A stretch of DNA of 64,000 nt from Gemmatimonadota bacterium (lineage in GTDB: Bacteria; Gemmatimonadota; Gemmatimonadetes; Gemmatimonadales; GWC2-71-9), in the NCBI GenBank assembly GCA_011390645.1, contig JAABRY010000001.1, forward strand, positions 7,192-71,191, in the 5' to 3' direction. The translations under genes and the position numbers were made by a program. The notes under the pieces are model-generated. The model saw only the letters and a program-made list of their open reading frames with translations. It searched no databases and had not been told where the DNA came from. This document shows, piece after piece, positions 57,362 to 57,437 of the stretch (position 1 is its first letter; each line of letters opens with the position of its first letter).

Positions 57362-57437
57362 GGTGAAAGGTGAAAGGTGAAAGGTGAAAGGTGAAAGGGA
57401 CTCCGCCTCCGACCCTTTCACCTTTTACGTTTCACCC
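57362..57437. repeat. GGTGAAA-heptad palindromic hairpin (copy H, 5 x GGTGAAA)
   Basis: (GGTGAAA)x5-GGG-actccgcctccga-CCCTTTCACCTTTTACGTTTCACCC. Confidence 0.9.

Follow-up and report, generated by a model that had tools for sequence, protein, structure and literature searches.

Transcript ends in bacteria without classical U-tract terminators are poorly understood, and the DNA analyzed here raises the question of what a set of hairpins built from tandem heptanucleotides is doing at the ends of its genes. The stretch (hereafter, the window) comprises 64 kb of Gemmatimonadales DNA with ~67% G+C (contig JAABRY010000001.1, assembly GCA_011390645.1); its proteins are nearest to those of Gemmatimonadales/Gemmatimonadota metagenome-assembled genomes (MAGs), and its DNA is 75-85% identical to Gemmatimonadales contigs. 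Five hairpins with the layout (GGTGAAA)n-GC core-loop-core-(TTTCACC)n occur in it, and a preliminary description had presented them as a repeat family of gene 3' ends, as possible bidirectional terminators lacking a U-tract and as unlike any described family. The results presented below indicate that they are extragenic palindromes of a Gemmatimonadales clade, similar in behavior to repetitive extragenic palindromes (REPs), in which a G+C-rich stem-loop is flanked by inverted heptad arrays. The feature is real, and it is partly explained by known phenomena.

Five heptad-armed hairpins form a sequence family

All five hairpins (copies 1 to 5, Table 1) were confirmed, and they are the longest inverted repeats of the window, with arms of 23-26 nt that are 88-92% complementary. 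The string GGTGAAAGGTGAAA, which comprises two adjacent GGTGAAA units, has 15 matches with at most one mismatch, all of them inside the five hairpins (0.00 in shuffles), and the pattern GGTGAAA-N7-37-TTTCACCTTTCACC retrieves exactly the same five places against an expectation of 0. A covariance model, which the preliminary description had called for, was built from 29 family members and recovers all five copies at 65-78 bits, with no others above 13 bits; the next-best matches, at 13 bits, are located at 58578-58648 and 53994-54061. Folding of the five copies yields stable structures both as RNA, on either strand (-35 to -43 kcal/mol, z -4.4 to -7.4), and as DNA (-20 to -25 kcal/mol).

Typically, one arm of a hairpin is perfect and variant heptads are confined to the other. 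The assertion that one arm is always perfect does not survive, however, since copy 2 has a variant heptad in both arms. The purine arm is the 5' arm in all five copies, and their orientation in the window is mixed, with two copies pointing one way and three the other. Because the purine arm comes first, AAA precedes and UUU follows the GC core, and reading in from either side meets TGA in all three frames before the hairpin. That three or more GGTGAAA units have this effect had been pointed out in the preliminary description. The letters of the GGTGAAA arm resemble a shortened Shine-Dalgarno sequence (AAAGG[AGG]UGA), and those of the pyrimidine arm resemble the 3' tail of 16S rRNA (UCACC[UCC]UUU).

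Several known classes of feature were considered and rejected. A CRISPR would have spacers, which are lacking here; the core sites of integron attC do not fit; a G-quadruplex is disfavored by the presence of GG runs only; a coding repeat is contradicted by the intergenic location of every copy and by the TGA in all three frames; and no such hairpin is expected by chance (0 in shuffles). The Rfam search that had also been called for returned no family at the gathering threshold other than three tRNAs of the window, and permissive settings produced only generic miRNA long-hairpin models at 13-36 bits, far under their cut-offs. A full-text search of the available literature library for the repeat strings found no report of them as a bacterial repeat. 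The heptad-armed, stop-codon-adjacent hairpin family hence appears to be undescribed, in agreement with the preliminary description, but it is at the same time part of the known phenomenon of intergenic heptanucleotide repeats.

The hairpins are located downstream of stop codons

Each of the five copies lies 3' of a stop codon, 15-38 nt away, and the claim of a true repeat family at gene 3' ends is thus borne out. The additional claim that the hairpins often lie between convergent genes is correct for copies 1 and 3, but not for copies 2, 4 and 5, which are found between co-oriented genes. The genes involved, as established with a codon-bias gene map and Pfam, are those of an ordinary gene complement, encoding metabolic enzymes, peptidases, kinases and transporters. 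Copies 2 and 4 are flanked by a stop codon on one side; on the other side, the stretch leading up to the next gene is conserved in relatives.

The sequence extending from copy 4 to the extracytoplasmic function (ECF) sigma-factor gene (46170-46258; TGCAACCCTTCC...CTTGCGTCCATC) is conserved in L251 and L252, where L-numbers designate loci from other genomes or metagenomes. It looks like an ECF-type promoter, in which case copy 4 would stand between the stop codon of the upstream gene and a promoter.

The same positional preference was observed in a set of 52 hairpins from many genomes for which both neighboring genes were called within 300 nt. Convergent gene pairs account for 20 of these hairpins, tandem pairs for 28 and divergent pairs for 4 (P = 0.0015). 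Among those in tandem pairs, 26 of 28 are closer to the upstream stop codon (median 7.5 nt) than to the next start codon (median 56.5 nt; P = 3e-6). Related genomes and other phyla show the hairpin design 0-40 nt past stop codons, and more than half of the related hairpins begin less than 10 nt from the stop codon. Canonical terminators, consisting of a hairpin plus a U-tract, are not enriched in the window (7 found, 6.4 expected), and a consensus terminator scan detected none of the five copies, all of which share with intrinsic terminators a G+C-rich stem-loop shortly 3' of a stop codon.

Copying and turnover of hairpins among gene ends

Comparison of the copies with each other revealed that some of them are related beyond their heptads. 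Copy 1 and reverse-complemented copy 2 have in common a 7-nt flank (CTGAAGC), a YGTCAAA unit and 13 of 18 core and loop positions; judged by these identities, copy 2 is a paralog of copy 1 in inverted orientation. The arm GGTGAAA-CGTAAAA-GGTGAAA is common to copies 4 and 5, and in one MAG five dispersed copies agree in arm, loop and a (GGTCGTA)n flank. Of 29 hairpins, 9, from four genomes, match the loop family GGGATGCTGTCACTGGACCCCG significantly (1.5 expected); copy 1 is one of them, and the remaining 20 loops are unrelated. The description of the five loops as unrelated is therefore only partly accurate: those of copies 1 and 2 are related, and the copy 1 loop is a member of a cross-genome family. 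The sharing of loop, flank and variant heptad by some paralogs indicates that whole hairpins get copied.

Orthologous sites in relatives hold the same hairpin with another number of heptads, a hairpin of other units (GGTGAAC, CAGCGAA or 8-mers), an unpaired array or nothing. At the copy 1 site, L124 (85% nucleotide identity) presents the same hairpin, with a loop one substitution away and 4-5 heptads instead of 3, and L126 (~77%) presents an 8-mer palindrome, (AGAGAGAA)n...(TTCTCTCY)n, around another element. The copy 2 site carries a different hairpin in L124, with arms (CAGCGAA)n...(TTCGCTG)n and another core, and an 8-mer hairpin in L126, and the copy 3 site carries a (GGTGAAC)n...(GTTCACC)n hairpin in L251. 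At the copy 5 site, the kinase gene is followed in L007 and L252 too by a GGTGAAA hairpin, but the loop is a different one (GATGCTGTCACYGGA), and the heptads per arm number 5/3 in copy 5 and 3/5 in the ortholog. The copy 4 site holds nothing but a solo 8-mer array in L252 and is empty in L251, relative to which the window has ~73 extra nt between two ACAGG motifs. As the empty site contains both motifs, the insert at copy 4 is not accompanied by a target duplication, and the other four copies show no direct repeats on their flanks. At three of the five sites, some repeat-armed hairpin (GGTGAAA, GGTGAAC, CAGCGAA or 8-mer) is found in every relative that shares the gene junction.

Repeat content differs among relatives. 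Heptad arrays are absent from L128 and L129, which have M1 peptidases with 86% and 82% protein identity, and in the repeat-poor L129 and L130 a simple GC hairpin, identified by eye, follows the M1 gene. Purine-first palindromes or arrays made of 8-mers (GAAAGAGA/GAAGGAGA; CGCGGAGG x7) occur in L126 at 5845-5935, 7950-8140 and 8738-8775, and others of the same kind occur in L252 (11119-11170) and L130 (12528-12583). Since these relatives build their palindromes from 8-mers rather than 7-mers, the repeat period is lineage-specific. Taken together, hairpin positions are often retained, their sequences are replaced quickly, and richness in repeats depends on the lineage.

The hairpins are embedded in a wider set of heptamer arrays, and the preliminary view of them as a stand-alone novelty has to be given up. 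Tandem Repeats Finder reports ~25 rows with period 7 in the window, and exact arrays of at least three units number 8 at period 7 and 0 at periods 5, 6 and 8-15, making 7 the sole repeat period in excess. The fetched loci contain 95 arrays at period 7 and at most 14 at any other period. Array units in the window include GCGAACA, GGTGAAC, CCAACGA, CCAACAT, GACCTAC, GCGATTG and CGGAGAA. Period-7 arrays are present in 10 of the 29 spacers of at least 30 nt (2/2 convergent, 8/22 tandem, 0/5 divergent), and units one or two substitutions away from GGTGAAA (GGTGAAC, GGCGAAC, AGCGAAC) form outer hairpin layers or palindromes of their own.

Distribution and polarity across phyla

A scan for GGTGAAA hairpins in a 596-Gb library with one genome per species identified at least 115 loci, against ~8 expected by chance in an estimate for uniform composition; these loci were picked by the GGTGAAA pattern itself, and a preference for this unit over other heptads cannot be read from them. 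Among the matches listed, the carriers comprise at least 7 Gemmatimonadales MAGs, many Bacteroidota (Chitinophagaceae, Bacteroidales, Sphingobacteriales), and Gallionellaceae, Methylococcaceae, Wenzhouxiangella, Desulfuromonadales, Pyrinomonadaceae (Acidobacteriota), Chloroflexota and others, with Flavihumibacter cheonanensis WS16 and Parabacteroides hominis NSJ-79 among the cultured carriers. A single MAG accounts for ~17 of the loci listed. Relatives fetched by protein homology have 1-3 hairpins per 14-21 kb, compared with 5 in the 64 kb of the window. In 2.9 million viral contigs there were no pattern matches, in a collection too sparse to serve as a control (0, 2 and 6 matches for three patterns).

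The order of the arms is strongly biased. Among the loci listed, 99 array pairs have at least two heptads on both arms in the purine-first order, and none have the reversed order. A metagenome scan for the reversed polarity produced ~15 real pairs among 120 matches listed; one gut gene, with ~45 matches, and chance matches made up most of that list, and the excess of purine-first over reversed polarity is roughly 10- to 40-fold among the matches listed. A reversed-polarity family, (TTTCACC)n-CTGATAATCAG-(GGTGAAR)n, was observed in several co-assembled metagenomes (L149, L169, L185, L193, L203, L237 and others); it is a different element that uses the GGTGAAA heptad in the opposite order.

Related palindromes and arrays in the window

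Table 1. Hairpins, heptamer arrays and related palindromes in the window, with their coordinates, composition and genomic context.
Feature	Position	Strand	Composition	Context
Copy 1	30206-30268		Arms 30206-30231 (GGTGAAA TGTCAAA GGTGAAA CGGGG) and 30243-30268 (CCCCG TTTCACC x3); loop ATGACTGGAGC	Between convergent S9 peptidase gene (stop 30167) and M1 peptidase gene (stop 30285)
Copy 2	32407-32469			17 nt past stop of M14 carboxypeptidase gene (32487, - strand), upstream of M1 gene; co-oriented genes
Copy 3	39186-39255			Between convergent DUF2911 gene (stop 39147) and SCP2 gene (- strand)
SCP2 stop codon	39237-39239	-	TGA	Within right arm of copy 3
Copy 4	46259-46322			16 nt past stop of agmatine deiminase gene (46338, - strand), upstream of ECF sigma-factor gene; co-oriented genes
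Copy 5	57362-57436		(GGTGAAA)5 GGG-ACTCCGCCTCCGA-CCC TTTCACC TTTTACG TTTCACC	37 nt past stop of Ser/Thr kinase-TPR gene (57325), 22 nt ahead of NlpE/META start (57459); co-oriented genes
Array, outer layer of copy 1	30167-30198	+	(ACAGCGA/ACGGCGA)n	Begins at S9 stop codon; weak partner at 30267-30284
Related palindrome	51266-51456		Outer arms (GGTGAAC)3 AGCGAAC / (GTTCGCC-type)n	Around ~140-nt inner palindromic element
Degenerate relative	58568-58660		(GGTGAGG)n...(CCTCACC/CATCACC) palindrome	Between convergent NlpE and S15 peptidase genes; 13 bits, E ~0.3
Hairpin	53994-54061		GGTGAGGGGGAACG...CGGTTTTCCCCCTCACC	Inside larger nested hairpin 53946-54105, downstream of LVIVD-repeat gene; 13 bits
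Back-to-back arrays	35179-35336	+	CGGAGAA, GCGATTG, GATCGGT, CCAACAT, CTAACGA	Fill spacer between HI0933-like FAD gene and M14 gene
Arrays at both ends of one intergenic region	6250-6676	+	CAGAGAA, TCCAACA, GACCTAC (6250-6332); CCCAACG/ACGACCA (6609-6676)	
Array	38476-38506	+	(GCGAACA)4	Last codons of acyl-CoA oxidase open reading frame (stop 38508-38510)

Unit turnover extends to the arrays that are not part of the five hairpins. The spacer at 35179-35336 holds other repeat units at the same place in L124 and L126, and the end of the acyl-CoA oxidase gene in L251 carries 12 copies of the complementary unit (TGTTCGC). At the site equivalent to 53994-54061, L252 carries a GGTGAAA hairpin. The nested G+C-rich hairpin around that position (53946-54105) lies between the LVIVD-repeat and kinase genes, in a 224-nt spacer that folds at -124 kcal/mol (z -6.8), and its inner stem is GGTGAGGGGG...CCCCCTCACC.

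Arms of (GGTGAAC)n and (GTTCGCC)n enclose the ~140-nt inner element at 51300-51430 (GTCATCCCGAGCGCAGCGAGGGATCTCC...GGAGATCCCTCG...CGCTCGGGATGAC), and a related element lies within the 8-mer palindrome of L126 (8002-8096). The two appear to represent a second family of small repeats, one that comes to lie at the center of repeat-armed hairpins. Arrays of (GTAGGTC)n/(GACCTAC)n recur in the clade (window, 6304-6332; L052, 3617-3746; upstream of hairpins in L046, L052, L071 and L115); they can form palindromes of their own and contain GTAG, the motif heading proteobacterial REPs.

The heptads also shape gene annotation. They supply the stop codons of the SCP2 gene and of the open reading frame at 50210-51274, whose stop (51272-51274) is the TGA of the first GGTGAAC, they extend the acyl-CoA oxidase and they generate spurious open reading frames on the TTTCACC strand. 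The NlpE/META lipoprotein gene beside copy 5 (57459-58532) is absent in L007 and L252, where the kinase-gene hairpin is followed directly by the S15 peptidase gene, a recent gain or loss of a gene next to the hairpin. Elsewhere in the window, three tRNA genes are encoded at 12339-12510 and 13951-14070, the third of which is followed by a 20-bp, 95% complementary hairpin without heptads (14027-14070).

A proposed role at transcript ends and its alternatives

We favor, at about even chance, a reading of these hairpins as REP-like dispersed palindromes that are built and resized by heptamer slippage and act as bidirectional hairpins at transcript ends, through termination or 3' protection. Since the copies lie from a few to ~40 nt past a stop codon, their position suggests that they would be transcribed as the mRNA tail on one or both strands. 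On either strand, the transcript tail is predicted to fold into a 23-26-bp hairpin, which would mark the 3' end of the transcript, be it that RNA polymerase is halted there with no need for a long U-tract or that 3'-to-5' exonucleases are held up; in the latter version, which fits equally well, termination would take place further downstream and the hairpin would act as a barrier. The arms would lengthen and shorten by heptanucleotide slippage, as in the neighboring arrays; the variation in heptad number among orthologs is observed, and slippage would be its cause. Whole hairpins would occasionally be copied to, or lost from, other gene ends, an outcome that is likewise observed. Three features argue for a role at the 3' end: where the hairpins lie and which arm comes first, the persistence of a hairpin of one kind or another at several orthologous gene ends, and the absence of classical terminators.

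A number of observations weigh against this reading. Intrinsic terminators present at least 5 U within ~8 nt of the stem, and the five copies read UUUCACC, a U-tract of only UUU followed by CACC. When a hairpin begins less than 10 nt past a stop codon, or contains the stop codon as in SCP2, the 5' arm would be covered by a ribosome in the act of terminating. The end of copy 5 is 22 nt away from the next start codon, leaving no room for a promoter, so that the downstream gene would need read-through. The copy 4 site has no hairpin in two relatives (L251 and L252), and hence the hairpin is not required there. In the alignment of 29 family members used for pairing tests, covariation is absent, with 81.9% of cells paired against 83.3% in column shuffles. 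The first heptad base shows 43 G-C, 21 G.G, 13 C.C and 2 C-G pairs in Gemmatimonadales, where 21 G.G and 13 C.C against 2 C-G reveal no compensation, and 82 G-C, 29 G.T, 25 A.C and 13 A-T in other phyla, as under independence. As this base is free and uncompensated, what is conserved is a hexamer, GTGAAA/TTTCAC, spaced at 7 nt. The sense strand has 20 mismatches of the G:U type and 13 of the A:C type, a difference that is not significant, and 5' and 3' arm lengths show no asymmetry relative to the upstream gene. Finally, a location at gene ends is also expected of a tolerated selfish element. With respect to the bidirectional terminator without U-tract put forward in the preliminary description, the statistics of position agree with it, but the 3-nt U-tract, the proximity to the stop codon and the lack of covariation and of G:U asymmetry weigh against termination itself.

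The main alternative, which we regard as unlikely, is that the hairpins are selfish. They would then be non-autonomous REPIN/MITE (miniature inverted-repeat transposable element) or IS200/IS605-type elements, with the arrays and asymmetric mismatches serving as the recognition structure for a transposase encoded elsewhere, and copies would gather after stop codons, where an insertion does no harm; a terminator effect, if any, would be incidental. The occurrence of whole hairpins, including loop, flank and variant heptad, at several loci is consistent with this explanation, as are the absence of covariation, the uncompensated mismatches in one arm, which tell the strands apart, and the presence/absence polymorphism without target-site duplication. 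Single-strand transposases of the HUH/Y1 type insert without such a duplication. Also in keeping with it, (GTAGGTC)n arrays, which contain the GTAG of the REP head (PMC2817692), lie 5' of the hairpin in one subfamily, found in another MAG only. However, the search for a RAYT or other transposase that the preliminary description had suggested found none in the window (Pfam, ~55 proteins). None of the five copies in the window has a GTAG head. Identical copies were not encountered, the loops of paralogs being just 70-85% alike and 20 of 29 loops unrelated, and hairpins of different units at orthologous sites are hard to obtain by insertion alone. The mixed orientation of the window copies and the lack of matches in the (sparse) collection of viral contigs also speak against selfish elements.

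Mutation alone could yield similar structures, if ordinary terminator hairpins gained arrays by replication slippage and template switching at quasi-palindromes copied one arm onto the other, so that the likeness among hairpins would be convergence under a genome-wide repeat bias, with no function added to that of the original hairpin. The sole excess of period 7 and the many unrelated heptads in the same spacers fit such a by-product, as do the turnover of units at one site between close relatives (GGTGAAA to GGTGAAC, GCGAACA to its complement, 8-mers in L126), the variation in heptad number between orthologs and the absence of arrays from the related lineages L128 and L129. Moreover, later papers report that a bacterial heptamer excess was attributed to polymerase slippage (Mrazek 2007 via PMC4679880, PMC4692102). 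Slippage and template switching account for the arms, but not for shared loops or variant units: copies 4 and 5 carry CGTAAAA, and copies 1 and 2 carry YGTCAAA, at matching rungs, and loops and flanks are common across loci and genomes. The fixed purine-first polarity and the ~73-nt gain at the otherwise conserved copy 4 site are also left unexplained, and we consider this origin very unlikely. Highly improbable, in our assessment, is a site acting at the DNA level, at which GTGAAA hexamers at 7-bp spacing would be bound by a nucleoid, gyrase-type or regulatory protein, or would form a cruciform, at the ends of transcription units. It is the hexamer, and not pairing, that is conserved, with one heptad base free and uncompensated; two helical turns accommodate three units, the hairpins are stable as DNA and there is no RNA-level signature. 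On the other hand, such a site has no need for purine-first polarity or tight proximity to the stop codon, relatives swap the hexamer for other units at the same sites and no candidate binding protein was found.

The recurrence of the hexamer across phyla is the question that could raise the importance of the family. It is conceivable, though quite unlikely, that hairpins with GTGAAA at 7-nt spacing constitute cross-phylum, sequence-specific transcript ends built from repeats, and that the recurrence reflects shared function or horizontal spread rather than ascertainment. In one version, they would be portable bidirectional terminator cassettes kept alike by a conserved factor, for example an RNA-binding protein or a single-strand transposase, that reads GTGAAA at 7-nt spacing; in another, terminator strength would be tuned phase-variably by heptad gain and loss.

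Should the favored role at transcript ends be correct, the hairpins would provide an easily recognized marker of such ends in high-G+C and uncultured phyla, and the intergenic heptanucleotide excess would gain a concrete role. A stem made of slippage-prone units can change its length in one step, and read-through between neighboring genes would then be evolvable on short time scales. The existence of cultured carriers makes the question directly testable.

Comparison with known repeats and terminators

The hairpins share features with several known systems. Like the Correia (NEMIS) elements of Neisseria and other MITEs, they are small and non-coding, have inverted ends (here, arms of 21-26 nt) and are present or absent between relatives. 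Such elements likewise form hairpins in the transcripts of gene ends. What sets MITEs apart is their fixed terminal inverted repeats, a target-site duplication and a parent insertion sequence; the window and the fetched loci showed none of the three. High-G+C bacteria are known to use bidirectional intrinsic terminators and U-tract-poor 'I-shaped' hairpins. Like these, the hairpins described here place a stable GC-cored stem-loop right after the stop codon, frequently between convergent genes, with an A-run before and a T-run after the core, alike on both strands; unlike them, they have 3 U only and a far longer, repeat-built stem of 23-26 bp with periodic mismatches.

REPs play a role in transcription termination. 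Roles in mRNA turnover and protein binding have been reported for them (PMC3479197, PMC2817692). The REP, BIME and REPIN sequences of Proteobacteria (PMC2817692, PMC3116915) resemble the hairpins described here in being short imperfect palindromes with many extragenic copies, typically at gene 3' ends, and in having an inverted arrangement that yields a long hairpin, a center less conserved than the arms and no coding capacity. In contrast to them, the hairpins have tandem heptad arms of variable copy number and swap repeat units at orthologous sites, the window copies lack the GT(A/G)G that constitutes the REP head (PMC2817692), no RAYT was found in the window and the host phylum is a different one. 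The BoxC/PIT repeats of E. coli (PMC4666352) are likewise intergenic G-rich/C-rich motifs (GGGNGAGGG) with unusually variable flanks, and they resemble the GGTGAGG...CCTCACC palindromes of the window (53994-54061 and 58568-58660). BoxC is, however, a triplex-type motif, unlike the heptad hairpin, and is reported to have shown no terminator activity in E. coli (PMC4666352).

Heptanucleotide repeats are known as cyanobacterial STRR sequences, GGGAATC-type repeats of Xanthomonas and Nostoc and TAACTGA repeats of Beggiatoaceae (PMC4692102, PMC4679880), and an intergenic heptamer excess in bacteria was reported in 2007, with no agreed function according to the later accounts of it (Mrazek 2007 via PMC4679880, PMC4692102). 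The arrays of the window match the LSSR/STRR definition, with intergenic 7-mers of at least three units, a period-7 excess and a variable number of units, and they share with the known repeats a length and sequence that vary between close relatives and a scattered distribution across phyla. In Xanthomonas, heptanucleotide repeats even form occasional inverted pairs between convergent genes, as here. Known heptanucleotide repeats are mostly single direct arrays, often upstream of start codons, whereas here two inverted arrays regularly flank a GC stem-loop after stop codons and make up a recognizable dispersed family.

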